Source: Gammaproteobacteria bacterium (GTDB lineage Bacteria; Pseudomonadota; Gammaproteobacteria; JBOHHR01). Taken from it: a DNA stretch of 33,152 nucleotides. The notes beneath the pieces are model-generated. The model ran no database searches, was not told where the DNA came from, and saw nothing but the letters and a program-made list of their open reading frames with translations. Positions 748-31,872 of this stretch are shown piece by piece (the stretch's first letter is position 1; each line of letters opens with the position of its first letter). The position numbers and the translations under genes are program-made. Location of the stretch: contig JBOIEG010000118.1 in assembly GCA_050740915.1 (NCBI GenBank), positions 1 to 33,152 on the forward strand. The letters run 5' to 3'.

Positions 748-3057
748 TTAGTAATGTGTCGGTGGAGGCTCGTCTGAAGTTACATTTACTTTTTGGCTTG
801 CGGTTACACTTTTCAATCTTTCCTGCCTTTCACGAATCTCTTTCTCAACATCCTTGTAATATTTGCAGTAGCCCAGCGTCCTCATCTGTTTTTTTATCCT
901 CTCGATTCTTGCTGTTAACAGCTCACCATGCAACACACTAGGCAAGTCATTTGTTTTAATAACACATTCACCTGAGAGCAATTTCACTTTCGCTTGGAAA
1001 TTAGGCTGATTCGTAAGGTCTCTTGCGATCTCGTTTTCCATATCAGCGAATGTCCGGTTTTGATACTTTGGCTGATACTGTCCCGTATCAACTAGAACAG
1101 GCTCTTTCGCGAGAACCACCATTGTATATCTGAGTTCTCTTATCATCTTTACCAATCGAGAAGCAGACTCCATTTCCCGCTTGCTCTCACGTGTAACAGA
1201 ACCAAACAACCCCTTCTTCTGACGGGAATTGATAAATTTAGTTGAGTACTCTTGGTTAATAAAATATGGATCGCCAAACACAGCCGCTTCTTCTTTAAAC
1301 TCTTTCAAATCGTGATGGCCTGGTTCACAATACGGAGGAACCAAAAACCCAAGTTTGATAAAGGGATAAAAGGTTTCCTCACTTGCGTCTTGCTGGGAAA
1401 CAGAGAGCATGTATAGAGCAAGTGGAGGAATGAGAAAGTGAGAACTAGCCTCACTCATACAGCGGTACAAACTCCTATTTAACTCTTCCCTCCCTTGTCG
1501 AATATCACGGGCTGTTAGAGAGATAGTTAAATAACCCCAGTACACGAAGTAATAGTTATCCTGTGCAGTTCTAGCAATTAAGTTTTCAAAGTTTTGTAAA
1601 TACACCTGCGCAAAGTAAGTCGCTCTCACATCGTTATGCCCCCGTTTAACTAAGTGGGTTAGGACATCTGAAACAGGCGCACGCACTGGCTCTTCTCCCG
1701 CTATTTCTTTAGTTGGTGTAGTATCGAAACACTTCGCGAGTACTTTCCCGTCTTCTCCACTGACTCGAAAGACGATCATATTTCCAGCTGCAATAGCAGC
1801 AGTTCTATTAGCCTCATCCAACTGTGAAAGTGTTTGATGGGAAAGTGTTGTGGCGATACGAAATTTACGTGCTTCTGATATAAGAGTGGCGAAATCAGAG
1901 GTCGCGAAGCGCTGGTACTCGTCGCAAAAGAGATTAAACTGGCGACGGCTCGCCTCTGGCTGATCTGTTCTTGAAAACGCAGCCATCAAAAGTTTTCCTA
2001 CCAAGATTGCACCTATAAGCCTTGATGCTTCTTCAAACTGAGGAGACAATTTAACAAGGAGTATTTTCCCGCTGTCCATAACCTCCCGAAAACTTATCGT
2101 TGTCTTAGATTGACAAACAATATTTCTTATCATCGGCTCATCTAAGAAACTGGTAACCTTGTTCATAGTCGAGTCGGTGTAAAGAGCTTTATCCCGTGCA
2201 GACATACTATTGTAAACTTCCCAAAACGACACAATAGAACTATTACTAAGATTCGCAGCCATTCTCTCCCGCACAGAATCACTTGATAAAAGAATTGGAA
2301 TCTCGCTAAACGTTGTGCCAGGACACTCTATAAGGGTACGAGTTACAGCACGCAGTACCTGCATTAAACGCGGTGTGTCTGTCCCTGCCCCCCATACTTT
2401 AGCAAATACGTGAGAGACAAAATTAGCAGTTGAGGCCATTGTTTTTATGTTTCTAGGCTCAGGACACTGAAACAGATTAAGTCCAAAGGGATACTCACCC
2501 TCCATAATATCGAGTAGGACCACATCCTTTAACCTATTCTCAGGAATACCACCAATTACTGTTTTGGTTAAATCGCCGTGCGGCTCAATGAGACACACAC
2601 CTAACCCATGCTTAATGTCTGTCAGAATCAGGTTGGCAAGCAATGTTGATTTACCAGTTCCATTTGCACCTATGATATATAGTCCTTGTTGCCTTGCTTT
2701 CTGTGAGATAGCAACATCAATACCATTTTCTATATCTTTACCAATAATTGAATACAGCCCGCTGAAGTCAGCGTAATCCCCGACTGTTTCTGATCGCCTT
2801 GGTACAGTTCTGATTTCTTCTCTACGTACAGTTCTATTGTTAATCTTTTCTCCATCACGATGATCTTCTCTTTCCTTTCTCTTTATACCCCCCATCTCAA
2901 CCAATTTAGCGAATACTGCCAGTTTTGCCTCTTTTGTTAAAGAACGAATAACCTCCCGAGGGATTGGGCAACGCGGGTGATTTAACGCCTCATCAATGAG
3001 GCGAATCTTCTCGCTTTCTGGTATCGCATCGAATGGGTTTTTTACATCAGTAACCAT
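748..3057 (-). CDS. P-loop NTPase of the FtsK/HerA/TraD (coupling-protein-like) superfamily
   Basis: 769 aa. Walker A is IIGANGTGKSTLL, followed by CLIEPHGDL. Walker B-like motif is LFCDEYQRF, and TLSHQTLSQL lies downstream. This spacing is typical of hexameric DNA-translocase/HerA-type ATPases. Confidence 0.7.
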   Translation of the reverse strand: MVTDVKNPFDAIPESEKIRLIDEALNHPRCPIPREVIRSLTKEAKLAVFAKLVEMGGIKRKEREDHRDGEKINNRTVRREEIRTVPRRSETVGDYADFSGLYSIIGKDIENGIDVAISQKARQQGLYIIGANGTGKSTLLANLILTDIKHGLGVCLIEPHGDLTKTVIGGIPENRLKDVVLLDIMEGEYPFGLNLFQCPEPRNIKTMASTANFVSHVFAKVWGAGTDTPRLMQVLRAVTRTLIECPGTTFSEIPILLSSDSVRERMAANLSNSSIVSFWEVYNSMSARDKALYTDSTMNKVTSFLDEPMIRNIVCQSKTTISFREVMDSGKILLVKLSPQFEEASRLIGAILVGKLLMAAFSRTDQPEASRRQFNLFCDEYQRFATSDFATLISEARKFRIATTLSHQTLSQLDEANRTAAIAAGNMIVFRVSGEDGKVLAKCFDTTPTKEIAGEEPVRAPVSDVLTHLVKRGHNDVRATYFAQVYLQNFENLIARTAQDNYYFVYWGYLTISLTARDIRQGREELNRSLYRCMSEASSHFLIPPLALYMLSVSQQDASEETFYPFIKLGFLVPPYCEPGHHDLKEFKEEAAVFGDPYFINQEYSTKFINSRQKKGLFGSVTRESKREMESASRLVKMIRELRYTMVVLAKEPVLVDTGQYQPKYQNRTFADMENEIARDLTNQPNFQAKVKLLSGECVIKTNDLPSVLHGELLTARIERIKKQMRTLGYCKYYKDVEKEIRERQERLKSVTASQKVNVTSDEPPPTHY

Positions 3058-3693: not shown

Positions 3694-4473
3694 CTATTCA
3701 AGTTTTTCCCCTCCATCTTGCTCGAGAACCACAATACCTAAATCTGACTCAAGCCCTTTAAGCCAGGTCTGATCTTTCTCACGAACCAATTCGCTGACGA
3801 GAACCCATTTATCAGGTCCTTTCTGGATATCGCGGACTGACCTACCTTGGTTTCTCTTGTGAGCCTCTGATACTCTTTCTCGAGAAATCTTTTTCTCCTT
3901 GAGAAGAGATTTAATTGCCGCCGCTACTGTACTACGGCCCTTGGATCGGGTCTTTGTGTCAATTCCGACCTGCTTGGCTATCTCTGCATAGGAGTATCCA
4001 CAGACGTACATTGCTACGAAAAGCGGAGCCGCCCACTTTCCAAAAGTGCTCGGCATCTGGCTGCATCGTACATACGGCTTATTGCGACACGAGTTTTCCG
4101 CCGGGGGGTGTTCGTACCACACAGTCGTGCTATCTCGCAGCCAGCGCCACCCTGTCTGAAGGTCCTCAATGCCTTGGAGCCATACTAGCATGACCAAATT
4201 CCGATCGGTTGGAGATAATTTTTCTTGATCGCGCAGTTTCAGGCCTATTTTTTCTAGCTGCTTTCGGGGAACCACAAACCGTTTCGCTCGTTTCCCCTTA
4301 TAGCCTGCGGCTGGGTCTGCAAATTCGATCCGAGCATCACCCTCCTCAGTCGGGGTTATACGTAAATATCGCGTTAATAACCTCAAACGCTTTCCGCAGC
4401 TAGGGTTAGGGCAGTACCGGGGTTCAGTCGGGAAACAGCCCACCTGAGGGACAGCTAGTTCGAGGACTGTCAA
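3694..4473 (-). CDS. hypothetical protein with C-terminal HTH-like segment (putative regulator)
   Basis: 259 aa. CPNPSCGK knuckle near the N-terminus. YSYAEIAKQVGIDTKTRSKGRSTVAAAIKSL resembles a sigma70 region-4/LuxR-type HTH. The TTG start overlaps the TGA stop of the upstream gene (TTGA, 4470-4473), which suggests translational coupling. Confidence 0.5.
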   Translation of the reverse strand: MTVLELAVPQVGCFPTEPRYCPNPSCGKRLRLLTRYLRITPTEEGDARIEFADPAAGYKGKRAKRFVVPRKQLEKIGLKLRDQEKLSPTDRNLVMLVWLQGIEDLQTGWRWLRDSTTVWYEHPPAENSCRNKPYVRCSQMPSTFGKWAAPLFVAMYVCGYSYAEIAKQVGIDTKTRSKGRSTVAAAIKSLLKEKKISRERVSEAHKRNQGRSVRDIQKGPDKWVLVSELVREKDQTWLKGLESDLGIVVLEQDGGEKLE

Positions 4474-5408
4474 GGAAGACGAAACCTTCTATACAAGTTA
4501 ACTCTGGCCTCAAGCTCATCGGCGGTCAACGCTCTGAGACGTTCTCTTGGAAGATTTTTAATAGCCGCGAGAATCCCAGCCTCATCCTCTGCCTTTATCT
4601 GAATAGGCTTGAGGCTTGCGATGTCGAGGGGCCCAGTCGCCATCACGGTTTTCTGTCCATCCATCACCATGGTTCGTACACCTTCAATGACGATGACAAC
4701 CTCGAAATTCTTTGACTTGAAATTGGCGAGAGCAGAGAGAATTCGGCGATTCTCAAGAAGCATTCTGAAGCCGTGCAGCGTCCCAGCTGGCCCCAAACCA
4801 GCAACGCTAAAAACTGCCGGCGCATTGCCGTGAGGTCGAATCACTTTCAGGACAAACGCGTCCTCCTGCGAAACGCCATGTTTATCCAGCTCAGGACAAA
4901 AGATCTCTTGACCGCGCTCCTCATCCACGATTATTCGATAAGGCTCTAGGACTTCCTCGGCATTGATGCAAACCCTCATCTTCCTCTTTGAGGTATCAAA
5001 CTCGTGGACGAAATCCCCAATCATCGCTCTACCCACACGTTGCAGTTTTTCAGTGCCATGTCTGTCCCATATTCGAGCTAGAGGGCTAGACAACGGACTG
5101 CCTACGTTTACTGCAACATGTATCTGCCCACCCGGAACGCCAAGGAGAACCTTGGTTCGGCGCAATACGCGGGCGATATCCACCAGCGGTTGCAGGTTCT
5201 CCGGAATGGCCGACCGCTCGCCCATTACCAAATGACAGCGTCCCGAGTACAGTGCTATGCGACCGCCATCGGGCAATATTTCTCGCGCAATATGGGCGTT
5301 TTCCTCGACCCGTGCCCTATGTTCGACTTCTCCTGCGATATGTTCCTCGGACATATTGCGAACGCATAGGAGATGGCCTAGTAGCCCTGGAGTTACACAC
5401 TGTTTCAT
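4470..5408 (-). CDS. hypothetical protein, no assignable motif
   Basis: 312-aa ORF, first gene of a two-gene minus-strand operon divergent from the radical-SAM gene. I cannot recognise a family from the sequence. Confidence 0.5.
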   Translation of the reverse strand: MKQCVTPGLLGHLLCVRNMSEEHIAGEVEHRARVEENAHIAREILPDGGRIALYSGRCHLVMGERSAIPENLQPLVDIARVLRRTKVLLGVPGGQIHVAVNVGSPLSSPLARIWDRHGTEKLQRVGRAMIGDFVHEFDTSKRKMRVCINAEEVLEPYRIIVDEERGQEIFCPELDKHGVSQEDAFVLKVIRPHGNAPAVFSVAGLGPAGTLHGFRMLLENRRILSALANFKSKNFEVVIVIEGVRTMVMDGQKTVMATGPLDIASLKPIQIKAEDEAGILAAIKNLPRERLRALTADELEARVNLYRRFRLP

Positions 5409-5741: not shown

Positions 5742-7466
5742 ATGAGGAGAGTCATGGAAATCAATGCTGCCCTCCGGAGTCACCAAGTTGAGCGCTCTGA
5801 AGCTCCGACCCAACACACCTTAGTTGAAGCGACACCGGAAGAGATGCCCTTTAAAGGGATCAGTTGGATCGAAAATAAAACCATCTTGACACCAACCGGT
5901 GGCTTTTTGGCAAGCGGGTATACGCATACCCTAAACCCTTACGTTGGTTGTGGGTTTGCTGGGGCACTCTGCGGAACGTTTTGTTATGCCCAGCATCAGC
6001 ACTGGATTGTACGTGGCCGTCCTTGGGGATTCTATGGCGCAAGGCATGATATACGCCAAGCGTATCAGCGCGACTTTGACCGGATAAAGCGGCCATGGCA
6101 AGGAACCTCTCGCCCCTTGCGCGTTTACATGTCCTCCAGCACTGATCCCTATGTACCCCAGGAGAAGAAGCTGTGTCTTACGCTAGCCATCCTGGAAGAA
6201 AGGCAGACCCGTCCCCCTGACGTGCTTGTGATCCAGACTCATACCACGCTCATTAACCGCGATTTTGATCTCATTCAGCCGCTCTCAAAGCGATGTGAGC
6301 TCTGGGTCTCGATAACTTGCGAGACAGATAGGGGTCCCGTGCCCGGTTTCCCCCCACACGCCTCGCGACCGGCCAAGCGGCTGGAGACGCTCAAGCGCTT
6401 TCGCGAGGCCGGTGTGCCAACGCAGGCGACGATCAGTCCGCTCATGCCCTTGGCAGACCCGCAGACGTTTGCGCGTGCCCTCGATGCCGCCTGTGACCGG
6501 GTGGTTATTGATCATTATTTACTCGGCGACGGCAGTCACGGCGCTAGGACCAAGCGAACCAATTTTCTCCAGCTGCTGGAGCGGGCCGGCTTTGGCGAGT
6601 GGGCGAAGGTCGAGAAGATGTGGGAGGTGCACGACCTCCTGGCCGGCGTATTAGGGGCTGAGCGGGTTTTGGTAAGCGCCGAGGGGTTCAATGCGGTCGG
6701 GATCCAACGAAAACCTGTCCCTGCCATGCACATAATCCAAGAGGATAGGAATACCCTACCTAACCTCCCTGATTCACCACAGCCTGCCCAGCAGTGCACG
6801 GACACTGATACATCTACCCCGTCAGCTGAAGATATTCCCATTTTGCGTTTAAACCAGCAAAAAGATGCACCCAAAAATGTGTATGAGTCGCTGCGCGACC
6901 ATCAGCAATTAAAGTCCGAAAAACTGTGGTTACTGCACACCTACCTGCCTCTCATCATTGAGCGCTTCTACGGCACACTTCCCTTGCCAGCCCTGAGCGT
7001 TGAGCCAGCCCGCTTAGGGAATTTAGGTTGGTATCTAGAGAAAGATGGTCTTGCCCTGAACCACCGTATCAATTTGAACTGCATGTATGCCAACCGGCCC
7101 CTCGCTGAGGTTTTACGGACACTTACCCATGAGCTTGGCCACCAATGGCAGCATATCCATGGGAAGAACGGCAAGAACCGCTACCACAGTAACTACCACA
7201 ATAAACAGTTCCAACTCAAGATGCAGTCAATAGGTATCCCCTGCAATAAGCGGGGGGTTTCCCTTGGAATGCAGGAGCCTTTTATAAGTTTTCTCAAGAA
7301 GCTTGGAATCGAGGCAGAGATTTTCCCGTTTAAACAGGAAAACGATGAGTCACCTGTCAGTTCAGGCTCCAGATTAAAACCTTGGGCTTGTAGCTGCACG
7401 CGGGTCTGGGCTTCAGTTCGCGTTGAAGTAAAGGCGACCTGCAGCGAGTGCGGTAATCCATTTTAG
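5742..7466 (+). CDS. fusion protein: SplB/COG1533-like radical SAM domain + SprT-like zinc metalloprotease + C-terminal zinc ribbon
   Basis: 574 aa.
- N-terminal half: LNPYVGCGFAGALCGTFCYAQ (NPYxGC signature, Cys spacing Cx6Cx3C), SSSTDPYVPQE, VLVIQTHTTLINRDFDL, and PHASRPAKRLETLKRFREAGVPTQATISPLMP. These match the DNA-repair-photolyase type of radical SAM enzyme.
- C-terminal part: LTHELGHQWQH (HExxH) plus CSCTRVW...CSECGNPF, as in SprT.
- An alternative start is ATG 5754, after AGGAGA. Confidence 0.75.
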   Translation: MRRVMEINAALRSHQVERSEAPTQHTLVEATPEEMPFKGISWIENKTILTPTGGFLASGYTHTLNPYVGCGFAGALCGTFCYAQHQHWIVRGRPWGFYGARHDIRQAYQRDFDRIKRPWQGTSRPLRVYMSSSTDPYVPQEKKLCLTLAILEERQTRPPDVLVIQTHTTLINRDFDLIQPLSKRCELWVSITCETDRGPVPGFPPHASRPAKRLETLKRFREAGVPTQATISPLMPLADPQTFARALDAACDRVVIDHYLLGDGSHGARTKRTNFLQLLERAGFGEWAKVEKMWEVHDLLAGVLGAERVLVSAEGFNAVGIQRKPVPAMHIIQEDRNTLPNLPDSPQPAQQCTDTDTSTPSAEDIPILRLNQQKDAPKNVYESLRDHQQLKSEKLWLLHTYLPLIIERFYGTLPLPALSVEPARLGNLGWYLEKDGLALNHRINLNCMYANRPLAEVLRTLTHELGHQWQHIHGKNGKNRYHSNYHNKQFQLKMQSIGIPCNKRGVSLGMQEPFISFLKKLGIEAEIFPFKQENDESPVSSGSRLKPWACSCTRVWASVRVEVKATCSECGNPF

Positions 7467-7604: not shown

Positions 7605-8294
7605 GTGGCTAGACGCAAACGCACTATCGTTGATGTTGATGGCAATGTTATCGTTACCGACTCCGACACCACCATACGCACCGCCCTTGAGCAGGCTGGG
7701 ATAGCAAATGATGTGGTAAGCGTGGTAAGCGGTGGTGAGATCATCACCGCAGAGGACTTTGACCGCCCTGCTCCAGCCCACGGGATGTTGACTAACCAGA
7801 CCGATATAGAGAAAGGCGGGGCTACGCTTCGTGAGCGTCTGCTTAATCGGGAGTTCGACCTAATCGCCCGCTTCTTAAGCACCTTTACCGGCAGGAAACG
7901 CTCCCTTGAGCTTGACGATACCTACCTTCTCATCCGCGCTTTCCCTCTCCCCGATTCCTACGCAACGGATTACGTCGATCTCTTGTTTGTCATCAGCGGT
8001 TATTACGACCTGCCTCCTGGAGGTCTGCACATCCCCTCTAAAACCCCCAACCGCGAACAGATAGTCAAGCACCTTGGCGGCCATGTGCAGGTCAACTCAT
8101 CACACGTACTCAACCACACCCCTGCAAGTTACCGTAAAACTGTAGATCAGCTTGCCCAGCTCGGCTGGGACTGGATATGTCTACACCACAAAAATTGGTC
8201 GTGGAAGTTCAACCCCGAGAGCCTCCTCTCAGGAGATTGCCTTTTCAAGTTCGTTGAGAACGTTTTTATAGCACTCTCAGGCAAGCTCAAGTAG
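7605..8294 (+). CDS. ubiquitin-like (beta-grasp) domain fused to an E2/UBC-like domain
   Basis: 229 aa with a GTG start 9 nt after AGGAGG (7590-7595). Residues about 7-52 (TIVDVDGNVIVTDSDTTIRTALEQAGIANDVVSVVSGGEIITAEDF) look like a ThiS/multi-ubiquitin type beta-grasp. They are followed by IEKGG (Gly71-Gly72). The rest is UBC-like: YYDLPPGGLHIP, WDWICLHH (candidate catalytic Cys192), WKFNPESL. The gene is 8 nt upstream of a JAB-E1 gene. Confidence 0.6.
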   Translation: MARRKRTIVDVDGNVIVTDSDTTIRTALEQAGIANDVVSVVSGGEIITAEDFDRPAPAHGMLTNQTDIEKGGATLRERLLNREFDLIARFLSTFTGRKRSLELDDTYLLIRAFPLPDSYATDYVDLLFVISGYYDLPPGGLHIPSKTPNREQIVKHLGGHVQVNSSHVLNHTPASYRKTVDQLAQLGWDWICLHHKNWSWKFNPESLLSGDCLFKFVENVFIALSGKLK

Positions 8295-8302
8295 GGTAAG
8301 CC

Positions 8303-9856
8303 ATGAACAAGCCTACTCATCCTAAGAAAGTCATCATCCGCTTCACTGCCCGTGCTTATGAGCGGGTAAGGCGGCTTCTGCTCAAGGACGAAAATGAGCA
8401 GATGTGTTTTGTCTTTGCCCATGTGGTCGAGACCCCAACCCCAAACCGCCTAGTATTTCTTTGCGATTACGTTTTACAGCTACATGATTCCTGCTACCTT
8501 AAGCGCACCCCAACATCCGTAGTCCTAGACCATCGAGCCAAAAACATAGTCTACGCTCGCTTCGCAGCCAGCACCTATGACGGGCTTCTTAACATCCACT
8601 CGCACCCCTTCGACAAAGGAAGAGTTGCCTTTTCCTCAAAAGATGATGAAGACGATTTGCGTGAAATCGCTTGGCAGTATGAACAACTGCCCCGAGGAAA
8701 AAGAGCCTACGGCAACCCAAGAAAAGTTCATTGCCTTTCTATGGTATTTGGCCAGAGAAGCCTTGACGCAAGAGGTCTTACCTGCCGGCATCTAGGCTTC
8801 CAAGAAGGTCTCTGCCCTCCCTTTTACCGAATTGAACAAGTACAGATTCTTGGCGAGAAACTTTCCGTTATAACGCCAACAGGAGCCACCAATTCACCAA
8901 CTCTTTCTTCTTCTGACCGCATAACGTATGACCGGCAAATTCTGGCGTTTGGAGCAGAAGGGCAAAAAACCCTTGGCTCCCTCCATATCAGCTTAATCGG
9001 AACTGGTGGGATCGGAAGTATCCTTGGAGAAGGTGTCTGCCGTATGGGGGTCAAGACCCTTACCCTCATAGACCACGACCTGTTATCTCCTCACTCGTTA
9101 AATCGTTGGCAAGGAGGTCGTCCTTCCGACATAGGCAAACCCAAAGCGCAGGTTTTGGCAACACACCTCAGGAGGATGTTTCCGGGCATAAAGGTTACAT
9201 CTATTGCAAAGCCCCTCACCCATCCTAAGGCGCTTAAGGCCATTAAGGGCGCAGATTTCCTTCTTGCAGGAGTCGACAACCACCAAGCCCGTTGGCTCTT
9301 GAACAGAATTTCAGCCCAATTCCTCATCCCGTATCTGGACGGAGCAACAGTCATCGCAAAGGGAAAGGGGGAAGCCAACAACCGCATGCAGCTTTTCTAC
9401 CGGTTAGCTGTCGTAGTACCCGGTATAACTGCATGCCTTTCCTGCAGCCAGATCAAATATTGGAATCATCAAGAAGATATTGCTCCCTATCTCTACGATC
9501 CAATAACCCGTTCCCGGCTTCAGGTATCAGGCTACATCCAAGACCATCCAGAGGAACAGGCACCCTCTGTTATGCCGCTTAACATGCTGGTTGCCGCATC
9601 AGTTCTTCTCGAACTTCTAAACCTTGTAACAGACTATGCTCCATTAGCTCGCAATGTGGCAGTTGATCACCTCTCCCCCAATCACACAACAGTGCGATCA
9701 GACACTAAAAACTTCCCTGAAGGCCCGGCCGAGGATTGTATTTCCTGCTTCGCACTTCTGGGTAAAGGCAACAGCGAACCCTTGCCCGTGATCGACATGC
9801 CTGCCCTTACAGAGTCCCAAATTGATAACCATTTCCCCCTTGCTGCCAATGAATAG
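8303..9856 (+). CDS. JAB/MPN metallopeptidase fused to ThiF/MoeB-type E1 adenylyltransferase
   Basis: 517 aa.
- JAMM-like motif: ENEQMCFVFAH ... NIHSHPFDKGRVAFSSKDDEDD (E, HxH, SxxD).
- E1 part: YDRQILAFGAEGQKTLGSLHISLIGTGGIGSILGEGVCRMGVKTLTLIDHDLLSPHSLNRW (Rossmann GxGGxG plus the D.D...NLNRQ-like motif), VDNHQARWLLN, and two CxxC pairs (CLSC, CISC). Confidence 0.8.
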   Translation: MNKPTHPKKVIIRFTARAYERVRRLLLKDENEQMCFVFAHVVETPTPNRLVFLCDYVLQLHDSCYLKRTPTSVVLDHRAKNIVYARFAASTYDGLLNIHSHPFDKGRVAFSSKDDEDDLREIAWQYEQLPRGKRAYGNPRKVHCLSMVFGQRSLDARGLTCRHLGFQEGLCPPFYRIEQVQILGEKLSVITPTGATNSPTLSSSDRITYDRQILAFGAEGQKTLGSLHISLIGTGGIGSILGEGVCRMGVKTLTLIDHDLLSPHSLNRWQGGRPSDIGKPKAQVLATHLRRMFPGIKVTSIAKPLTHPKALKAIKGADFLLAGVDNHQARWLLNRISAQFLIPYLDGATVIAKGKGEANNRMQLFYRLAVVVPGITACLSCSQIKYWNHQEDIAPYLYDPITRSRLQVSGYIQDHPEEQAPSVMPLNMLVAASVLLELLNLVTDYAPLARNVAVDHLSPNHTTVRSDTKNFPEGPAEDCISCFALLGKGNSEPLPVIDMPALTESQIDNHFPLAANE

Positions 9857-10802
9857 TACTCACGAGAAGAAGCAGCCTAACAAAGGCACCAAGCCATATA
9901 TTTTGACCAAGGCCACGGAACGAATCCTAAGAGCCGCCCATTTTTATCGCTTTCTGACAGCTCTTGACTTCGCAACCCTTCTTTACAGCCCTTCCTCTTT
10001 AACCTATGCGCGCGCGCTCTTATCCGAGCTTGCCGGAGGGGAGGATTTCAAGACCAACGAGTATCTCTATAGATTCAAGTTGCCCAACGGGACATCAAAT
10101 GGCAGCAGAATATATACCCTCGGAGTTAAAGGCAGAAACTATTTAGTAAGTGAGCTGGGCTTACCTGCTGATTGGTATTTCAGACCCCATAAATTGAAGT
10201 ATCTTAGCTATTGTCAGGCTGATCATAACCTCAGCCTTGCCCGTTTTCAAATTTCAGCCCAAGCCTGGGCTAAGAAGCAACCCAATTACCGCATCGCGCA
10301 CATCCGTATTTGTTACGAACTTGCCCAAACAGCACCTATTATCGAGATCACCACACAAGGCAAAACAGAAAGACTCAAAGTCATACCGGACGCGTGGGTA
10401 TGTTTTCAAAAACTCAGGGACGGCAGTGGTGAGCATGAACGTTTTATGCCAGTCCTGCTGGAGCTAGATCGCGGAACAGAGCACCAGCTCCGCTTCAAAC
10501 AACATGTGCGCTCCAAGATCGCCTTTATTCAAACGGGCGCCTATAGGCAGCTCTTCCACACCAATGCAGTAGTGATCGCCTACGTGACCACAGGACAAAC
10601 ACCTGACTATCAGCGCACAAGGAGAAAAGCCATTTGCCGCTTCACAATGGAAGTATTAAAAGAACTCGGAAAGGAATCCTGGGCTTCCATATTTCGCATC
10701 ACCAGCACTAGTCTTGAGCATATCTATGAGACGCCTTTTTTTGATGCACCCATCTGGTACCGGCCTGATTCGGACACGCCAGTGCCCCTTTTCACTCCCT
10801 AA
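9849..10802 (+). CDS. Replic_Relax (replication-relaxation) family-like protein
   Basis: The ORF-track frame opens at 9822, but the first ATG is 9849 (MNSTHEKK). It overlaps the E1 stop (9854-9856) by 8 nt. ILRAAHFYRFLTALDFATLLYSPSSLTYARALLSELA resembles the N-terminal wHTH signature of Replic_Relax proteins found on plasmids. Confidence 0.5.
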   Translation: MNSTHEKKQPNKGTKPYILTKATERILRAAHFYRFLTALDFATLLYSPSSLTYARALLSELAGGEDFKTNEYLYRFKLPNGTSNGSRIYTLGVKGRNYLVSELGLPADWYFRPHKLKYLSYCQADHNLSLARFQISAQAWAKKQPNYRIAHIRICYELAQTAPIIEITTQGKTERLKVIPDAWVCFQKLRDGSGEHERFMPVLLELDRGTEHQLRFKQHVRSKIAFIQTGAYRQLFHTNAVVIAYVTTGQTPDYQRTRRKAICRFTMEVLKELGKESWASIFRITSTSLEHIYETPFFDAPIWYRPDSDTPVPLFTP

Positions 10803-10834: not shown

Positions 10835-11188
10835 ATGACAAACCTTGACCAAATTCAAACCATTTCAAGCGACCAGCTGACCTTAATGCAAAACAAAATC
10901 AACAAAGAACTTGAGAAGCGCTCTGGCCAAGACATAGACATTAAGAAAATCCGGAGCCAAGCCTACAAACTTGCCAAAGCCTTAGGCTGCGAATGGATAG
11001 CCGACAGTTATCCCAAAGAGAGCATACAGGACACAGACAAACCCAACAGGAGGGGAAGAAAACCAAAGACTGACGAAAAAGCAGAAACCCCAGTGGCTAC
11101 TCAAACCAAACTACAAGAGGCCACCTCGCCGATTGGCAACACTTCTCCCGAGGAGGAGAAGCGAGAATCCTCCCTATGGCCTTTATAG
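10835..11188 (+). CDS. small AT-hook (RRGRKPK) protein, possible nucleoid-associated/silencer-like; paralog of 20720-20980
   Basis: 117 aa, with AGGAG 6 nt upstream of the ATG. It has an N-terminal helical segment and then DKPNRRGRKPKT. It is about half identical by eye to the 86-aa product of 20720-20980. Confidence 0.6.
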   Translation: MTNLDQIQTISSDQLTLMQNKINKELEKRSGQDIDIKKIRSQAYKLAKALGCEWIADSYPKESIQDTDKPNRRGRKPKTDEKAETPVATQTKLQEATSPIGNTSPEEEKRESSLWPL

Positions 11189-11276
11189 CCATGCCCCAGT
11201 CCTCAGCTAGTCCTTGTGGCCACAGATATCACATACCACAATATTTAGTAAAAAACTCTTTACTTTTGCCCGCACA

Positions 11277-11525
11277 ATGAATACAGTCAATTGTATGGCG
11301 ATTGGCGAGAAGATCAAAAAGCTCCGGCTGGCGGCTGGCCTGAACCAAAAGCAGGTGGCTGTAAAAGCCGACATCGATCAGGGCGGGCTAAGCAAGCTTG
11401 AGCGTGGCCTGACAACAAACACCACCTTGGAAACGCTGCAGAGCATTGCCCGCGCGCTCGGCTGTAGCGTGGTTGACCTCCTCGACGAGGAGCACAAGCA
11501 AAAACCGAAGAAGACAGCCGCCTGA
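11277..11525 (+). CDS. XRE-family helix-turn-helix transcriptional regulator
   Basis: IGEKIKKLRLAAGLNQKQVAVKADIDQGGLSKLERGLTTNTTLETLQSIARALGCSVVDLL is a canonical Cro/C1-type HTH. The first ATGs in the frame are 11277 and 11295. Confidence 0.8.
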   Translation: MNTVNCMAIGEKIKKLRLAAGLNQKQVAVKADIDQGGLSKLERGLTTNTTLETLQSIARALGCSVVDLLDEEHKQKPKKTAA

Positions 11526-11697
11526 TACCCTGTGTATGGGTCGCTGAAAGGCCCGGTGGCACGACTAGGATTTAATCAGCGCGGAAAAATAAAAGACCCA
11601 AAAATGAGTGAGGCCGGGGGATGTACAAGATCCGCCAGCCTCGGATATATAACACAACCAATCAGGCACCATGCAAAAATGCCATCAAGGATAAATA

Positions 11698-12441
11698 ATG
11701 TTAGCGGACAGTAAGCCAACTGTCCAGCCCCCCGGCAACCGTTGTGGACACAATCCCTGCTCTCCCCGCTCATTTGAGCCCCCCGAACGTCACAAAGCGC
11801 GTCCAGGCATCCTGCGCAAGCTCGGCGAGAAGATCTGCGCCTACTACGACGCCCCCGCCAAGATCCTGCCCAGCCTCAACCTTGCCAACGGCAAGGACAG
11901 CCAGCAACGCTCCGAGCGCCGTGAAGCGTGTTTGCAGCTTCTTTCCTGCCTGATTCACTTCCTCGATCTGGTCACCTTGCGCGTTGGGATCCCCCAGGCT
12001 AACGGATCGTTCCGCGGCCTCTCCCTGCCCTATCTCGCCGGCCTCTCAGGGCTGGAGCTGCGCCGCGCCGAGCGCGCCTGCCACGATCTGGTTGTATCCG
12101 GCATCCTGACAGTGCACCCCATCGCAAAAAAGACAAACACCGGGGAGTTTAGTGGCCTCCCGGCCATCCGCACCCTCTCCCAGGCACTCTTCCGCGCCTT
12201 CAACCTCGCTCACTGGCTTAAGCACGAGCGCAACAAGGCTTCCAAGCGCCAGCGCAAGCAAGAGCGCAAGGAGGAGGCGATGGGGCGTATGGAGCTGGTG
12301 CTGAAGGGCGCAGAGGCGAAAGCCCGGCAAGGCAATCCACAGAGCCAGACAACCAAGCCGCAACCCCTATCCAAGCCAGAGGAGCCGGCCTCCGTGATCG
12401 CCCGCCTCAAGCACATGCTCCGGGGCACCGGACCGCCCTAG
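11698..12441 (+). CDS. putative plasmid replication initiator (winged-helix, basic C-terminus)
   Basis: 247 aa, with AAGGA 8 nt upstream. LSLPYLAGLSGLELRRAERACHDLVVSGILTV looks like a wHTH. A basic tail follows: KHERNKASKRQRKQERK. The functional call rests mainly on the iteron array about 200 bp downstream. Confidence 0.4.
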   Translation: MLADSKPTVQPPGNRCGHNPCSPRSFEPPERHKARPGILRKLGEKICAYYDAPAKILPSLNLANGKDSQQRSERREACLQLLSCLIHFLDLVTLRVGIPQANGSFRGLSLPYLAGLSGLELRRAERACHDLVVSGILTVHPIAKKTNTGEFSGLPAIRTLSQALFRAFNLAHWLKHERNKASKRQRKQERKEEAMGRMELVLKGAEAKARQGNPQSQTTKPQPLSKPEEPASVIARLKHMLRGTGPP

Positions 12442-12635
12442 TCTCCCCTTCCCTCCTCAAGCTGCAAAGCCCCTGAGCTTGAAGCACCAGGACAGACACC
12501 TTTTGTCTATCTAACCCAACTAAGCGCAATTTGCGCTCTTAAAGGCACGTACCAGCGCCTCCAGCTGCCCAATTTCACGCACCTGTAACCCATACCCACT
12601 AGCCTTGCTCACTCCCCGACAAAGCACACCTAAAT

Positions 12636-12734
12636 TAAGTGTCGGTAGGCTCTCCAATAACTGTCGGGGTGGGTGGCCACCGGCAAAACCCCATCCTCTT
12701 AAGTGTCGGTATGCAGAAGCGATAAGTGTCGGAG
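12636..12734 (+). repeat. iteron-like direct repeats (candidate oriV)
   Basis: TAAGTGTCGGTA at 12636-12647, TAACTGTCGGGG at 12658-12669, TAAGTGTCGGTA at 12700-12711, and TAAGTGTCGGAG at 12723-12734. Spacings are 22, 42 and 23 bp, so the copies sit on a ~21-22-bp phase with one position skipped. Confidence 0.55.
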
Positions 12735-13039
12735 CTTAATCAAACTCTTTTTCAGCATAGGAACACCTAGACTGGCCTAATCGGGATACCCCAGCACCCA
12801 GCAACCGCACCTGCCGCATAAATCGGTTTTCAATATCAAAAAGGGGATTAGGGCGTTCCATAGAACAGCGTGCTCAAACCGGACGGCCTGAGAGCCCCTA
12901 GGAGTGACGATCTCACCTTGACCCATACGTCTGGCTACCCAAAAAAGCAGGAAAAACCTCTCTTTCCTAGAACAAAGGCTCCCCTGCCCCACGAGCACAA
13001 GCATTAAAATATCATAAGCTATTGATGATACGTAACTTC

Positions 13040-18486: not shown

Positions 18487-20025
18487 ATGAAACGCTTTCT
18501 TTATATCCTAAGTACAGTTTTAAGTTTTCTTGGCAGCTGCTTTTCGAAGACTCATTCATTACACAATGCCCGCTTTGCCCGCCTTGATGAACTAACAAGT
18601 CTTGTGAGCCATACCCTTGATGAGGGAGGATTGCTTTTGGGAATAAGCTCATTCAACCAAATTCTTCGAGTACGTCTTACCAAGACACGCCCAGAGCTGG
18701 GCAACACACTCATCGTGGCGCCAACCCGCGGTGGCAAGGGACTACTTGCTGTGAGTCAACTTTTAACTTGGCCGCATTCAGTTGTGGTTAATGACATCAA
18801 AGGCGAGCTCTATGACCAGACCGCTGGCTACCGGGCAACTCTTGGCCCAGTCTTTTGTCTTGATCCACGGGGTTTGGGCCATTGCTTCGATCCTCTGCAT
18901 ACCCGCACTGACGAGGATGAGTTATATGCAGCAGCAAAAAACCTGTTGCATGAACCCCATGAGACTGATGGTAAGCCGTTTACCGAGCGGGCTATTAAAA
19001 TGCTCACCCTCATGTGGCTTGCCGCCAGAAAGCAAAACGAGCATTCTTATGAGCAAACCCGCCTGCTGCCATTTACCAGAAATTTAGCTGATCTTGGTTT
19101 AAATCGCGCTGTCCCAATAATCCACGCGATCTCACCCGCCTTAGCTACCCGTATGTTTGATGGGGAATACATACCAGAGCATGACTACAATGAGAATAAA
19201 TATTTGTCTTCATCCTGGGAATCCTTAACAGCCCGTCTCTACCCTCTTCTAACCGAAAAAGTTGCCCGCTGTTTTAATGGCTCGGATTTCACCGGAGCGG
19301 ACATCATCACCTCCACTAAACCTATTACAATTTATTTATGTTGGCCTGAGTCCGCGCTTCTTGCCAAAGCGCCTCTCATTCGGCTGGTGTGGGAATCTTT
19401 GATTGGGCAGATGCTTGATACCTATGACAGAGCCAAAGGGGAGGCCTGCCATCCGGTATTACTCCTTCTTGATGAGGCAGGCACCGTTACTCTTCCCAGT
19501 CTTCCCCAATATGTCGCAACGGTTGCAGGCCGGGGCATTTGCGTGTGGGCTGCCATTCAAGACCTCTCGCAGCTTGAGCTTTATGGCATGCATAAGGCCA
19601 AAACCATCAAAAACAATATGGATACTAAAATCTATTACCGACAAGCATCAAGTGAAACCGCAGAGTACCTCGAGCGCTCTCTAGGCAAACAATCAGGCTT
19701 CGCCCACTCCCAAACACTACACGATGGACAAGAGGAGAGTCAGGGACTTTCAGAGCATGCAGTACCCCTTCTTACGGCCAGAGACATCAATGAGCTTAAT
19801 CATGATGAAATTATCGTTTTTTTCTCCAACCACAAGCCCTTCAGAGCCAAAAGAATGGACTGGCGAGCCTTTCCAATCCTGACACAACGACGCGCAATTC
19901 CCCCTCCCAAACTTGCCACCCTTCCAGAACTTGAGTCAAACCCTTTCTACTTAAGAACAAAAAGCACGTGGAAGGGGAGAGCCATTGACCCAGACGATCT
20001 TAATCCTTATGAGAAGCTAAATTGA
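18487..20025 (+). CDS. type IV coupling protein (VirD4/TraG family)
   Basis: 512 aa. LIVAPTRGGKGLLAVSQLLTWPHSVVVNDIKGELYDQTAGYR matches the VirD4 Walker A region. LLLLDEAGTV is the Walker B. Confidence 0.85.
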   Translation: MKRFLYILSTVLSFLGSCFSKTHSLHNARFARLDELTSLVSHTLDEGGLLLGISSFNQILRVRLTKTRPELGNTLIVAPTRGGKGLLAVSQLLTWPHSVVVNDIKGELYDQTAGYRATLGPVFCLDPRGLGHCFDPLHTRTDEDELYAAAKNLLHEPHETDGKPFTERAIKMLTLMWLAARKQNEHSYEQTRLLPFTRNLADLGLNRAVPIIHAISPALATRMFDGEYIPEHDYNENKYLSSSWESLTARLYPLLTEKVARCFNGSDFTGADIITSTKPITIYLCWPESALLAKAPLIRLVWESLIGQMLDTYDRAKGEACHPVLLLLDEAGTVTLPSLPQYVATVAGRGICVWAAIQDLSQLELYGMHKAKTIKNNMDTKIYYRQASSETAEYLERSLGKQSGFAHSQTLHDGQEESQGLSEHAVPLLTARDINELNHDEIIVFFSNHKPFRAKRMDWRAFPILTQRRAIPPPKLATLPELESNPFYLRTKSTWKGRAIDPDDLNPYEKLN

Positions 20026-22778: not shown

Positions 22779-24692
22779 ATGGATAAGGAATCTAACCAGT
22801 TTACCATTCAAAGCAAGGAATTATCACAGCTTGAACAACTGCTAAATAAAGAAATGGCAGGTGCCCAAGTGGTACTTCTTACAGGCAGCACTTCACTTTG
22901 GCACATGAACGAAGGTTTGTTACGAAATGTAGCGACAGGCCGCCTCGCCGATCCTCAAAGAACGAAGATCAACAGTGCTTCTCTTTATGAACGGAACGAT
23001 TATTGGGAGAAAAGAGGCACGCGACCGGATAAACGGCTCCATGAGTGGCAGACTAACATGGATACTTATCTCAAGAAGCAACTTCAAGATGAAGAGAAAC
23101 GTAATCTGTTGGAAAGAATTCTGAAACGACATAATCAAACTCCTGATGAGGTAGTCGTAAACGCGGAAACTATCTATAACAGACTCATGGTAGATCAAAA
23201 AGGAGATGTTGAATTTTTTGCCAGAAGACTGAGTAGAGAAGATATTAAACAACACGCAGAAGTCATCCAGGAATTCGCGGGTATCTATGGGCAGAATTCA
23301 AGCAAAATAGCCAAAATACTTGCCGAGGGAATAATAAACGCTAACGACCAGCCTTGCGCACTTATCGACTCAGCCCAAAGAGAGTTAAGCGATGAAGAGC
23401 GAATTATACTTGAGACACTTGACCTGCACGCGCAAGCCAAAGAGAAAAAATATCTAGGGCAAATCGCGAAAGCTCAAACAAGGTATCAGGAGCAGCCGGC
23501 TTTACGAGAGGTGGCGCAGCAAACAAAAAGTGAGCCCCATAAAGCCAGGGAAGAACTTAGGCAATTGGTGGAGGAAGACGTCGGAGTTTGCACAGAAACA
23601 GATAAGGGGCAAGACGCATACTTCGCGGATACCGAAAACGCGATTTTTGGTGTGTTTGACGGAGTAGGAAGTTATAGGCATAGTGGTGAAGCTGCTAATA
23701 TAGCTAGTGAGCACATTAACGTCGCCCTAGCAGGCATTGAAAGCAATCTGGATCTTGATAAAACAAAACATACAGTAAGGGACGCGCTTATACAAGTAAG
23801 TGAGGAAATAAATGAAGAGGTAGTAACACGATATAAAATCGTAGAAGAAGACATAAGGAAAAACATTGCAGGAAATTTATCAGACGACGATTTTGACAAT
23901 AAATATAAACCAAGAACTGAATATGATAATAGTTCCATAAGCAAATGGATAAAAGGAGAACTTGACGCAGCTGAGCCAACAGAACGTTTGTATAATGGTT
24001 TAACAAGCTATATCCATGGTTGGATCAAGAAACAAGTAACTATGGCTACAACCGCCTCCGTAGTCAAACTGTGGCAGGGAGAAAATGGAGATAAACAAGC
24101 AATCATCGCTAATGCAGGAGACAGCAGGGTTTATGTATATAAGAATAAAGAGGATAAACTGGAGATAATAACTATCGATGATAACTTTCTCTACGAGGTT
24201 GTGGATGGACATAAAGCAAGAGAGATACAGAAGGCATTAGGCAATGGAGCAAAGATCAAGGATGTTCTGGCAGAAGAGACGGTTGTACTTAAAGAATCAA
24301 ATCCACTACACAAGAAGTTGTGGACATTTCATCATGGCACGATATGGAATGAAAAAGATTATCGTTTTTGGCAAAATGGAGAAGTAGAAGTACCGCTTAA
24401 AAACATTAGCTCTTTTGCAATGACGAGGCAAATCCCATTTGTAGGTACAGAACCAACTATAAAGCAAATAAAAATCGCATCAGGTGATAGGATTGTAATG
24501 ACGACTGATGGTGTTCACGACAATTTACGCACATCAGAAATTGAAGAAATAATTAGAAACAACCCAGACCCAATCGAGGCAGCTAATGCGGCAAAAAGAA
24601 AATTAGACGACATACGAGAATTAGCGCGGACATTGAAAGGCAGAAGCTATAAAGCAGACGATATAACGTTTGTTGTTATCGCCATAAACTAA
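22779..24692 (+). CDS. PP2C-family Ser/Thr phosphatase with an unassigned ~280-aa N-terminal region
   Basis: 637 aa. PP2C motifs appear in order: FGVFDGVGSYRHSGEAANIAS, ANAGDSRVYVY, MTTDGVHDNL, ADDITFVVIAI. Confidence 0.8.
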   Translation: MDKESNQFTIQSKELSQLEQLLNKEMAGAQVVLLTGSTSLWHMNEGLLRNVATGRLADPQRTKINSASLYERNDYWEKRGTRPDKRLHEWQTNMDTYLKKQLQDEEKRNLLERILKRHNQTPDEVVVNAETIYNRLMVDQKGDVEFFARRLSREDIKQHAEVIQEFAGIYGQNSSKIAKILAEGIINANDQPCALIDSAQRELSDEERIILETLDLHAQAKEKKYLGQIAKAQTRYQEQPALREVAQQTKSEPHKAREELRQLVEEDVGVCTETDKGQDAYFADTENAIFGVFDGVGSYRHSGEAANIASEHINVALAGIESNLDLDKTKHTVRDALIQVSEEINEEVVTRYKIVEEDIRKNIAGNLSDDDFDNKYKPRTEYDNSSISKWIKGELDAAEPTERLYNGLTSYIHGWIKKQVTMATTASVVKLWQGENGDKQAIIANAGDSRVYVYKNKEDKLEIITIDDNFLYEVVDGHKAREIQKALGNGAKIKDVLAEETVVLKESNPLHKKLWTFHHGTIWNEKDYRFWQNGEVEVPLKNISSFAMTRQIPFVGTEPTIKQIKIASGDRIVMTTDGVHDNLRTSEIEEIIRNNPDPIEAANAAKRKLDDIRELARTLKGRSYKADDITFVVIAIN

Positions 24693-24750
24693 TCTTCTTA
24701 AGTGGATACCCACTTCTTCTTAAAGATGTGCTGTCCGTCGATATACCCAC

Positions 24751-29270: not shown

Positions 29271-30273
29271 CTATGCGGACTTAAGTTGAGATAACTGTTC
29301 GGTAAATACTTCACAGGGAGTTTTGTATTGAAGCACTTTTCGCGGTATGTTGTTCAATTGGTAAACGACCTCGTTTAACTTTTCCTGAGAAACATCGCGA
29401 AAATCTGTTCGTTTAGGAAAATATCTTCGTATTAGCCAATTGCGATACTCGTTTGTTCCTCGTTGCCATGAACTGTATGGATCGGCAAAATATGTTTGCA
29501 TAGCAAGATCTTCCTTCAATCGTACATGCAGATAATTTTCACTGCCATTATCCAGTGTTGTTGATTTGCGAGCTTGTTTCGGATAGAGAACTGAAAATAC
29601 AAAGCTGTGCCAGATATGTTTCTTTTGCGCGAATGTGGGGTATTTGGTAGGCAAAGAGCAATCGGGATATTCGTTCTACTTCTGTATGAATACCTGTTTT
29701 ATGTTTGTTGCCAACAACGGTATCGCCTTCCCAATGTCCAAACTCTGAGCGTGTATTAATGTTTTCAGCTCGCTGTCGAATGGATACTCTATGGGGAATT
29801 TTAACTGACCAGTGCCTTATGCCAAGCCAGCGGCTTCTCTTTTTGTGGCTTCTTGGGAGCTTCTCCCATAATCGCAACTCTTTTTGCTCCCTATCATAAA
29901 TATATTGATAAATAGACTCATGGTTAATGTATTCTTCAGGGGATCGTTGGCCTTCCTTGATCTCCTTTCTCAGTCTCCCCGCAATTTGCTCCGGTGACCA
30001 GCCAAGCTCTAATTTTTCAAGAACATAGGATTTAAGTCCTGGACGGGTCTTGAGCAAATATTTTTTATGAAAGTTTAGTTTTCTTCCTTCTGTGGCTTTA
30101 TGAGCATGAATGGAATGATATATTCCATCTATTTTATTGCGTTGTAGCTCATCGGAAATACTGGAAGGGCTTCTTCCTAATCTTCTGGCAATTTCTCGAA
30201 CGCCGTCTCCGGTTGCATGCCAGTAGGCGATCTTATCACGCTCCAAAGCGGTAAGTTTATGATTTGATTTCAC
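29271..30273 (-). pseudogene. IS30-family transposase, split by one frameshift
   Basis: The N-terminal ORF (30273-29548) has KLTALERDKIAYWHATGDGVREIARRLGRSPSSISDELQRN (IS30 HTH) and GHWEGDTV. The C-terminal ORF (29654-29271) has LDNGSEN...DPYSSWQRGTNE (DDE region). The frames overlap at 29548-29654. I could not define the element ends, though they probably lie near 29.23 and 30.31 kb. Confidence 0.8.
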
Positions 30274-30324
30274 TATCTCCTAACAGTATACCACCAACTC
30301 TACTGTTCGGATCCGAAATTGAAT

Positions 30325-31276: not shown

Positions 31277-31289
31277 CGAACTTCTCAGC

Positions 31290-31535: not shown

Positions 31536-31872
31536 AATGTCATCGCATCAGGCCTGCAACTCAAGCCGGGAGGCCAGTCGTGGCGTAGAAAAAACCCAGA
31601 GAGCCCCCTTATCTCGGTTAATGTTAATAAAAAAACAACTTCGAGTGTTGTGCTGCGGTGATTGAGGAACCGATCAGAACAGAAACCCGTTTTCGGCGGC
31701 GGATCGCCGTTGGCCTTTTGTATGTCGTATTCAACACTCAAGCGGCCGAGCTGCGGCTCGATACGATCCGCCTCCCTTTGGGTTTTCATATCGCCGTGTT
31801 TGCGCGCGTTCCGCAGGCCCGTACGATGGCGTTGAGCCCAAGCGGTACTCTATATGTGGGCACGGGGTCTAA

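Follow-up and report, generated by a model that had tools for sequence, protein, structure and literature searches.

A radical-SAM-like domain with a CX6CX3C cysteine motif joined to a SprT-like protease in a relaxase cassette

The DNA analysed here is a contig of 33,152 nucleotides from a Gammaproteobacteria bacterium (JBOIEG010000118.1 in assembly GCA_050740915.1; 'the window' below means this whole stretch), and our subject is a single gene at positions 5742..7466 of its forward strand. The gene encodes a protein in which a radical S-adenosylmethionine (SAM)-like domain is joined to a SprT-like protease. Both domains are of known kinds. What is new is a conserved CX6CX3C spacing of the cluster cysteines, a recurrent pairing of SprT with a radical SAM (or AlkB) enzyme, and a relaxase cassette with swappable modules. 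The literature that we searched holds no description of the radical SAM–SprT pairing or of the cassette. The first-pass annotation of this DNA, which did not recognise the pairing as described, thus judged correctly, as no paper in that search links radical SAM with SprT.

The reading that we favour, tentatively and with somewhat less than even confidence, is that the protein is a two-enzyme DNA clean-up module, a protease plus a direct-reversal enzyme for a lesion or crosslink, which serves a mobile element. COG1533-type proteins are widespread and SOS-regulated and have no known substrate, and bacterial SprT proteins are poorly understood. The recurrent and order-independent coupling of the two leads to the hypothesis that proteolysis is combined with direct chemical reversal of DNA adducts, which the occurrence of AlkB as a partner supports. 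The fused protein is a natural construct for testing this proteolysis-plus-reversal hypothesis.

Two enzyme domains in one polypeptide

In the ORF list of the window, the open reading frame (ORF) runs uninterrupted through 574 amino acids on the forward strand. Its true start is probably the second ATG, at 5754, giving a protein of 570 amino acids, because a Shine–Dalgarno sequence (AGGAG, 5745-5749) precedes this ATG and the homologue P0001 begins at the equivalent methionine. The layout is as follows.

5742..7466, + strand: whole ORF, comprising a radical-SAM-like domain, a linker, a SprT-like protease and a zinc ribbon (ORF list; homologues)
5859..6716, + strand: COG1533/MJ0683-type radical-SAM-like domain, about residues 40-325, predicted to form a partial TIM barrel (NCBIfam, AlphaFold2 (AF2), Foldseek)
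5934-5990, + strand: NPYVGCGFAGALCGTFCYA, residues 65-83, which holds Cys 70, 77 and 81 (motif search)
5949..5984, + strand: putative [4Fe-4S] ligands C70-x6-C77-x3-C81 (CGFAGALCGTFC) (motif position, alignment, clade invariance)
6768..6833, + strand: low-complexity inter-domain linker PDSPQPAQQCTDTDTSTPSAED, residues 343-364 (motif position; variable among homologues)
6852..7340, + strand: SprT-like zinc metalloprotease domain (Pfam PF10263, alignment, AF2, Foldseek)
7128-7160, + strand: HELGHQWQHIH, residues 463-473, with HExxH at 463-467 (motif position)
7389..7451, + strand: zinc ribbon CxC-x14-CxxC (CSC...CSEC; C550, C552, C567, C570), residues 550-570 (motif position; alignment)

The first-pass annotation had assigned a radical-SAM-type and a SprT-like domain and had pointed out the low-complexity linker, the HELGHQWQH motif and the CxC...CxxC ribbon. 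Family matches bore out both assignments, and every motif lies where it had been placed. At the linker, the end of the N-terminal domain model has a low predicted local distance difference test (pLDDT) score, and the linker is missing where the two domains are split between separate genes in the related locus L083.

Pfam SprT-like (PF10263) matched the C-terminal part with an E value of 2.9e-05 (24.3 bits, just under the cut-off of 25.6 bits), and many homologues carry precomputed matches to the same family. Across 34 aligned sequences, H463, H467 and the pair Y485-H486 do not vary and E464 hardly varies; the predicted third zinc ligand is His486, in NYHNKQF. The same alignment revealed the ribbon that marks the SprT family, with C570 invariant and C550, C552 and C567 nearly invariant. 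The AF2 model of the C-terminal domain reached a pLDDT of 82, and its top Foldseek match was the SprT domain of human SPRTN (6mdx_A; probability 1.0, root-mean-square deviation 3.1 Å over 103 columns), followed by the minigluzincin abylysin. Judged from sequence and model together, the SprT protease looks catalytically intact.

CX6CX3C is a conserved clade trait

The cluster cysteines of the window protein are spaced C-x6-C-x3-C in place of the canonical CX3CX2C. When aligned, the first and third cysteines match the canonical ones, and the loop holds four extra residues, three before the middle cysteine and one after it. The 6,3 spacing occurred in 19/19 readable genome loci above 43% identity (from Planctomycetota, Nitrospirota, Acidobacteriota and others), and the 3,2 spacing in 58/58 Bacilli relatives at 35-40% identity, again among genome loci.

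Altogether, 90 sequences carry the pattern G-C-[AGS]-[FY]-[AG]-x-[SA]-L-C-G-x-[FY]-C-Y-[AV], with all three cysteines invariant in 90/90; the glycine following the middle cysteine and the aromatic residue before the third are invariant as well. With the loop masked, the nearest neighbour was another 6,3 protein for 88/90. Mean identity was 0.51 within the 6,3 group, compared with 0.31 to canonical proteins. Given this invariance, and given that 6,3 proteins remain one another's neighbours when the loop is masked, sequence comparison identifies CX6CX3C as a clade-defining trait under selection and not as a sequencing error. The non-canonical spacing reported by the first-pass annotation is therefore real, and the sequencing error hiding a CxxxCxxC, which it had named as a possible refutation, is ruled out by the 19/19 loci that keep 6,3.

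Related branches have spacings of 6,2, 7,2, 11,2 and approximately 26-30,2. In the last of these forms, P0139 and P0155 carry an insertion of 26-30 residues rich in Gly, Asp and Arg between the first and second cluster cysteines; evidently, large insertions can be accommodated in the cluster loop of this branch. For active radical SAM families, a RadicalSAM.org survey lists first spacers that range from CX4 to CX11; the second is CX2C in each variant listed and thus never expanded (PMC9477430). In the literature searched, no paper pairs 'CX6CX3C' with radical SAM. The motif is thus a variant with both spacers of the cluster loop expanded, which informs annotation (Pfam misses the domain) and the understanding of loop variability. 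An apparent second neighbour cluster of stand-alone CX6CX3C genes consisted of antisense ORFs and was discarded.

Affinities of the N-terminal domain

NCBIfam placed the N-terminal part near three families: the PA0069 family (E value 1.1e-19), radical SAM mobile pair protein B (6.3e-14) and the Rv2578c family (8.6e-12). The scores of 70.6, 52 and 44.7 bits are all far below the respective equivalog cut-offs of 360, 410 and 430 bits, and the kinship to these families is, on such scores, at the superfamily level only. The window domain and its canonical relatives share the strand motifs SSSTDPY, VIQT, ETD, SPL and IDH in alignment. The Pfam Radical_SAM family (PF04055), which does not match the window protein, is carried by the distant relatives P0078 and P0080-P0082. 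An AF2 model of the domain built from 51 sequences reached a pLDDT of 87 and shows alternating beta and alpha elements. Among its Foldseek matches, those with the best template-modelling (TM) score and a probability of 1.0 were LipA (lipoyl synthase), viperin, MgmA and PylB, at TM 0.4-0.5.

The first-pass annotation had called the domain SplB/COG1533-type. Its COG1533-type part is supported by the NCBIfam matches; the likeness to spore photoproduct lyase (SPL), the SplB enzyme, is not significant. SPL was not among the top 50 Foldseek matches of the N-terminal domain and gave no NCBIfam match, a canonical Bacilli relative used as query likewise did not reach it, and a PDB sequence search with the whole protein matched nothing. 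An Alba match that appeared in a PDB search with family profiles was set aside as a chance hit. Because PF04055 does not match and the similarity to SPL is not significant, 'DNA repair photolyase' is a COG label from automatic annotation and not a demonstrated kinship.

Context, by analogy, points to nucleic-acid chemistry for the radical SAM domain: AlkB occupies the partner position in related loci, and the PA0069 and Rv2578c relatives are SOS-regulated. In P. aeruginosa, PA0069 counts among 15 SOS genes, and the Rv2578c promoter of M. tuberculosis is LexA-bound and RecA-dependent.

The radical SAM family domain also occurs in other fusions. In P0206 it is joined to a domain that we read by eye as ParB-like, and in P0072, P0073 and P0117 it has a C-terminal P-loop-containing domain, both readings being made with no profile behind them. 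P0264 combines it with DUF3102 (precomputed Pfam match). P0212 is a family member with an N-terminal cysteine-rich domain, which we take to resemble DUF4326.

The pairing recurs in several arrangements

We found 82 homologues, of which 23 align with at least 84% of the query at identities of 61-79%; these 23 are protein clusters at 90% identity from JGI, ENA, NCBI and Logan. Across 1.84 billion representatives searched, a single 50%-identity cluster spans both domains, so by this sequence measure the fusion, though genuine, is limited to a narrow lineage. That it is a true single-ORF fusion, as the first-pass annotation held, is confirmed by the same uninterrupted fusion in many independent assemblies. 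A metagenome scan contributed 10 loci. The two modules occur in the following arrangements.

Window and 23 clusters: fused, radical SAM then SprT
L083: two genes with a 4-nt overlap and no linker, radical SAM of 297 aa (87% identity in that part) and SprT of 224 aa
L097 and L098: separate genes, SprT first, then a CX6CX3C radical SAM protein (310 aa in length)
P0078, P0261 and P0262: reverse fusion, SprT plus ribbon N-terminal and canonical CX3CX2C radical SAM C-terminal
L095: in-frame stop inside the fused gene

The reverse fusions involve two different canonical radical SAM subtypes, one in P0078 and the other in P0261 and P0262, and are independent of the window-type fusion. Split, reversed and reverse-fused forms all corroborate the pairing of the two modules. 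L095 had looked like a further two-gene arrangement, a view that we rejected on finding the in-frame stop. The first-pass annotation had held that two ORFs in related elements, for example because of an assembly frameshift, would speak against the fusion. Two ORFs do exist in some relatives (L083, L097); they are natural operon variants and reflect no assembly frameshift, and they therefore strengthen the functional link.

Some homologues already bear both COG names in the automatic annotation of JGI. Viral contigs gave one weak match only, and we therefore see no phage association.

Where the radical SAM partner is missing, an AlkB-type 2-oxoglutarate–Fe(II) dioxygenase (PF13532) stands directly after the SprT-ribbon gene in several loci, with E values of 7e-39 in L086 and 3e-16 in L088. 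At these loci, AlkB-type genes lie at or overlap the 3' end of a stand-alone SprT-ribbon gene.

L086, 1546-2199: AlkB-type gene
L088, 4257-4868: AlkB-type gene
L101, 9595-9966: AlkB-type gene
L102, 3343-3666: AlkB-type gene

L096 has a degraded AlkB-type copy. As the SprT of L088 is only 33% identical, the AlkB association is old. Comparison of the loci indicates that AlkB takes the radical SAM partner position in sister elements.

A cassette with a relaxase and exchangeable modules

The gene belongs to a conserved cassette, missed by the first-pass annotation, with the order SprT with or without a partner enzyme, regulatory module, MOB-C-type relaxase, and a 770-880-aa ATPase resembling type IV coupling proteins (T4CPs). 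This synteny is kept across loci down to 33% identity. With ubiquitin-like (Ubl), JAB and E1-type genes as the middle module, the order ending in the 770-880-aa ATPase recurs in L083, L092, L093, L095 and L103; in L091 (33% identity), SprT is followed by JAB, E1 and the T4CP-like ATPase, and no Replic_Relax gene was detected there. The middle module is exchanged for bacHORMA_2 plus AAA in the P0025 locus, for an AAA ATPase in L097 and for a PP2C phosphatase plus kinase in L096. Ubl/JAB/E1 and HORMA/AAA-type modules are of the same kinds as those that regulate CBASS, the cyclic-oligonucleotide-based antiphage signalling systems. The cassette thus suggests that in conjugative elements DNA processing is regulated by the very modules that also control CBASS immunity. 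A literature search for SprT, relaxase and ThiF together returned nothing relevant. The cassette genes in the window, and a second coupling protein, are these.

7605..8294, + strand: 229-aa protein with an approximately 72-aa putative ubiquitin-like N-terminal part ending ...IEKGG, followed by a conserved domain of approximately 155 aa, fold unassigned
8303..9856, + strand: 517-aa protein with a JAB-like N-terminal domain (HSHP-x9-S-x2-D) and a ubiquitin-type E1 (Pfam ThiF, 1.2e-40)
9822..10802, + strand: Replic_Relax, a MOB-C-type relaxase with PD-(D/E)XK fold (Pfam PF13814, E 2.3e-05)
748..3057, - strand: T4CP-like and DndH/Mad8-like ATPase, 769 aa (Pfam TrwB_AAD_bind and T4SS-DNA_transf, weak; PADLOC mad8 2e-12, DndH 8e-08)
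18487-20025, + strand: second coupling protein, 512 aa, with a strong TraG/VirD4 (T4CP) match

In the 229-aa protein, a GG pair ends the Ubl part at residue 72, and in the second domain the cysteine of WICxH is conserved. Orthologues lie at the same position in L083, L092 and L103, and a stand-alone Ubl protein in L095 ends in VGG. The 229-aa protein had no match in Pfam, PADLOC or the PDB, and no E2 was recognisable by sequence in Pfam or the PDB; the protein would combine a Ubl part with a domain that is possibly E2-like. The JAB assignment in the adjoining window gene rests on the motif only, and Prok-JAB weakly matches a JAB gene that stands separately in L095. The best PDB matches of the E1 domain were UBA1 (5e-18) and Citrobacter BubCD (2e-16), to both of which it is closer than to MoeB or ThiF. 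The Ubl and JAB–E1 genes stayed below threshold for every PADLOC and NCBIfam model, and the two-gene operon at 7605-9856 may be an undescribed class of Ubl system.

The Replic_Relax gene is syntenic in L083, L092, L093, L095, L096, L097 and L103. Replic_Relax is a family of the PD-(D/E)XK (restriction-endonuclease) fold (PMC3424549), and CONJscan classes PF13814 as a MobC relaxase (PMC5357655). Orthologues of the 769-aa ATPase stand directly after Replic_Relax in L092, L093, L095, L097 and L103, which suggests that in the window this gene has been relocated upstream on the other strand by a rearrangement.

The window also carries ParA genes, MazE and RelB antitoxins, a resolvase, a transposase and two T4CP-like genes, and has the look of a segment from a plasmid or another mobile element. 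No PLSDB plasmid matched 25 kb of the window at the nucleotide level, and all protein matches there were below 40% identity. Neither Rfam nor tRNA scans found anything in the window, and a scan for promoters and terminators gave counts at chance level.

Several further features of the window were recorded. A PP2C phosphatase (637 aa) and a protein-kinase-like gene (563 aa) form a pair at 22779-26442, so that the window has both module types. Upstream of the fusion gene, at 3694-5408 on the reverse strand, a divergent pair encodes a 312-aa protein with no family match and a 259-aa protein with a sigma-70 region-4-like helix-turn-helix (HTH). Because a sigma-70-like or HTH_3/HTH_31 regulator occupies the corresponding divergent place in related loci (L093, L097, L101 and the P0025 locus), the HTH gene is possibly the cassette regulator. 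G+C content is 0.54-0.59 at 30000-33152 and 11000-13000, compared with 0.39-0.52 elsewhere in the window, and a DDE transposase lies at 32186-32806, within the first of these stretches; the G+C jumps and the transposase together suggest a mosaic origin or an insertion.

A proposed DNA clean-up module and the alternatives

From the domain identities, residue conservation, recurrent pairing and synteny described above, we infer function, including the DNA substrate, the Fe–S cluster and SAM chemistry, the order of action and the link to conjugation. In the clean-up reading that we favour, the SprT module would break down proteins that are bound or crosslinked to DNA, which is most likely single-stranded. 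The radical SAM module would hold a [4Fe-4S] cluster in its CX6CX3C loop and, by means of a 5'-deoxyadenosyl radical, directly reverse a DNA lesion, an attractive target being the residual peptide–base or base–base link left after proteolysis. In sister elements, the AlkB-type dioxygenase would fill the radical SAM role. As the cassette includes the pair of MOB-C relaxase and coupling ATPase, the module would work on behalf of the DNA being transferred or replicated by the element.

A number of observations weigh against this reading. We know of no COG1533-type enzyme with a known substrate, which makes the DNA substrate a case of guilt by association. On the side of the fold, Pfam Radical_SAM did not match the window protein at E <= 0.1, the Foldseek E values of the N-terminal domain were weak at about 1e-3, with generic TIM barrels interleaved, and the family profile reached SPL among PDB sequences only at E ~1.3; the Foldseek E value for SPRTN was also weak, at 1e-2. 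On the side of context, SprT lacks any partner enzyme in L091 and L103, and no neighbour is conserved beside the stand-alone CX6CX3C enzymes in genomes of Planctomycetota, Nitrospirota and Acidobacteriota, so the CX6CX3C enzyme is bound neither to SprT nor to plasmids. Conflict systems, and not repair operons, are the typical setting of swappable Ubl/E1/JAB, HORMA/AAA and kinase/phosphatase modules. To our knowledge, MOB-C relaxases may not form a covalent tyrosyl–DNA adduct, which would remove the most obvious crosslinked substrate. We had entertained removal of a covalently attached relaxase by SprT, and downgraded this idea because the relaxase is of the MOB-C type with a restriction-endonuclease fold.

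One alternative, which we hold to be unlikely, is an ArdC-like anti-defence or establishment factor acting on or with the incoming single strand in the recipient: the protease would destroy host restriction or defence proteins, and the radical SAM or AlkB partner would strip host-imposed or damage-type base modifications. The gene does adjoin relaxase and coupling-protein genes of a mobile element, and its partner varies (radical SAM, AlkB or none) as arms-race modules would. ArdC too joins DNA binding to a zincin metallopeptidase (PMC6222260), and multi-enzyme 'polyvalent' proteins are typical of plasmids (PMC5512222). However, Pfam and PADLOC scans found neither ArdC-N nor another known anti-restriction domain, no translocation signal is known, and the SOS regulation of chromosomal relatives indicates repair and not conflict. 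The polyvalent-protein survey, moreover, makes no mention of the pairing among SprT, AlkB and radical SAM (PMC5512222).

We give a lower chance to a plasmid-borne conflict or defence system that senses and attacks invading DNA, built from SprT with or without its partner, a CBASS-type regulatory module, a PD-(D/E)XK nuclease and a DndH/Mad8-like translocase, with the SprT–radical-SAM protein as sensor or effector. Three observations speak for it. The 769-aa ATPase matches mad8 and DndH and matches T4CP weakly, a separate strong T4CP being present at 18487-20025; Replic_Relax has a restriction-endonuclease fold; and the middle module is swapped among Ubl/JAB/E1, bacHORMA_2 plus AAA, and PP2C plus kinase. 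On the other side, the standard mobilisation pair is a relaxase with a coupling-type ATPase behind it. The loci also carry replication, partition and other transfer genes, and no PADLOC defence model matched the SprT–radical-SAM protein, the 229-aa protein or the relaxase. The placing of PF13814 in the MobC relaxase class by CONJscan (PMC5357655) counts on the same side.

A bolder form of the clean-up reading, to which we grant a slim chance, takes the cassette as a bacterial counterpart of modifier-regulated eukaryotic DNA–protein-crosslink repair, recruited by conjugative plasmids to keep their transferred single-stranded DNA clean. Three steps would follow one another: the Ubl module (in sister elements HORMA/AAA or kinase/phosphatase) would mark or license the target, the SprT protease would trim the protein adduct, and the CX6CX3C radical SAM enzyme or AlkB would cut the remaining peptide–base bond. 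If true, the third step would be a new class of radical SAM reaction, crosslink reversal on DNA.

Slimmer still is the prospect of a radical SAM domain whose substrate is a protein or peptide, such as the Ubl, the relaxase or a protease substrate, with SprT as the processing protease. Most radical SAM enzymes that are fused or adjacent to peptidases do act on peptides, the similarity to SPL is insignificant, and a Ubl-type gene and small ORFs come after the gene in most loci. Yet SprT persists without a Ubl system in L096, L097 and the P0025 locus, and radical SAM is replaced by AlkB, a family of nucleic-acid repair. Where a Ubl-type gene does follow, the loci already have a JAB peptidase to process the Ubl. 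The domain is also without a SPASM or twitch auxiliary-cluster domain, and its relatives are SOS-regulated.

Finally, an assembly or frameshift chimera, or a dead gene with a cluster-less radical SAM scaffold, is very improbable: separate ORFs in L083 and L097, the in-frame stop in L095 and the missing PF04055 match would fit it, but 23 clusters from several data sources hold the same uninterrupted fusion, the invariance of the three cysteines, the following glycine and the aromatic residue before the third cysteine in 90 sequences of about 50% mean identity points to purifying selection on the cluster site, and expanded first spacers are known in active radical SAM families (PMC9477430).

Relation to known systems

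The closest likeness of the N-terminal domain is to the COG1533/MJ0683-like proteins (RadicalSAM.org Megacluster-5), with which it shares the NPYxGC lead-in, a cysteine triad followed by Y-A, the strand motifs SSTDPY, VxQT, ETD and SPL, and a similar length of approximately 280-320 aa. Members of that group are SOS-regulated in P. aeruginosa and M. tuberculosis, which fits a role in DNA damage. They have CX3CX2C where the window protein has CX6CX3C, and the window domain differs further in being fused to a protease.

SPL (SplB, for example PDB 4FHC) belongs to the same broad radical SAM subgroup. Its chains were the top PDB sequences for the family profile (E ~1.3), with the cysteine loops in register. 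With SPL there is a precedent for radical chemistry that directly reverses a DNA lesion. In contrast to the window protein, SPL has the canonical CX3CX2C, and the window gene stands in no sporulation context.

DUF5131 (PF07505), or phage Gp37-Gp68 (Megacluster-5-2), is a relative of SPL and the MJ0683-like proteins with CX6CX2C (PMC9477430). It resembles the window protein in its expanded first spacer and its presence on mobile elements; the window protein differs in that its second spacer is also expanded (CX3C). Five homologues have a precomputed match to this family, and the window protein had none at E <= 0.1.

ArdC is, like the window protein, a plasmid-encoded, DNA-associated zincin metallopeptidase linked to conjugation (PMC6222260). 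It is a peptidase of another family, and the window protein has an additional radical SAM domain; Pfam, NCBIfam and PADLOC scans found no ArdC-N domain in the latter.

The genes next to the fusion resemble bacterial Ubl operons (class 6 of Iyer et al. 2006; Bub, Bil and the CBASS Cap2/Cap3 proteins) in that they encode a putative Ubl with GG at its end, a JAB-like domain and an E1, and such operons are borne on mobile elements (PMC1779556). That survey draws no link from Ubl operons to SprT, a relaxase or a T4CP-like ATPase, and radical SAM, SplB and photolyase do not occur in it (PMC1779556).

With SprT, SPRTN and Wss1, the C-terminal part has in common HExxH with a downstream histidine and a small zincin core with a zinc-binding module after it. 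It differs from them in being joined to a radical SAM domain (AlkB in relatives) and in lying within a plasmid relaxase cassette. SPRTN and Wss1 are controlled by ubiquitin and SUMO, and the Ubl/E1/JAB genes that adjoin the window gene loosely parallel this control.

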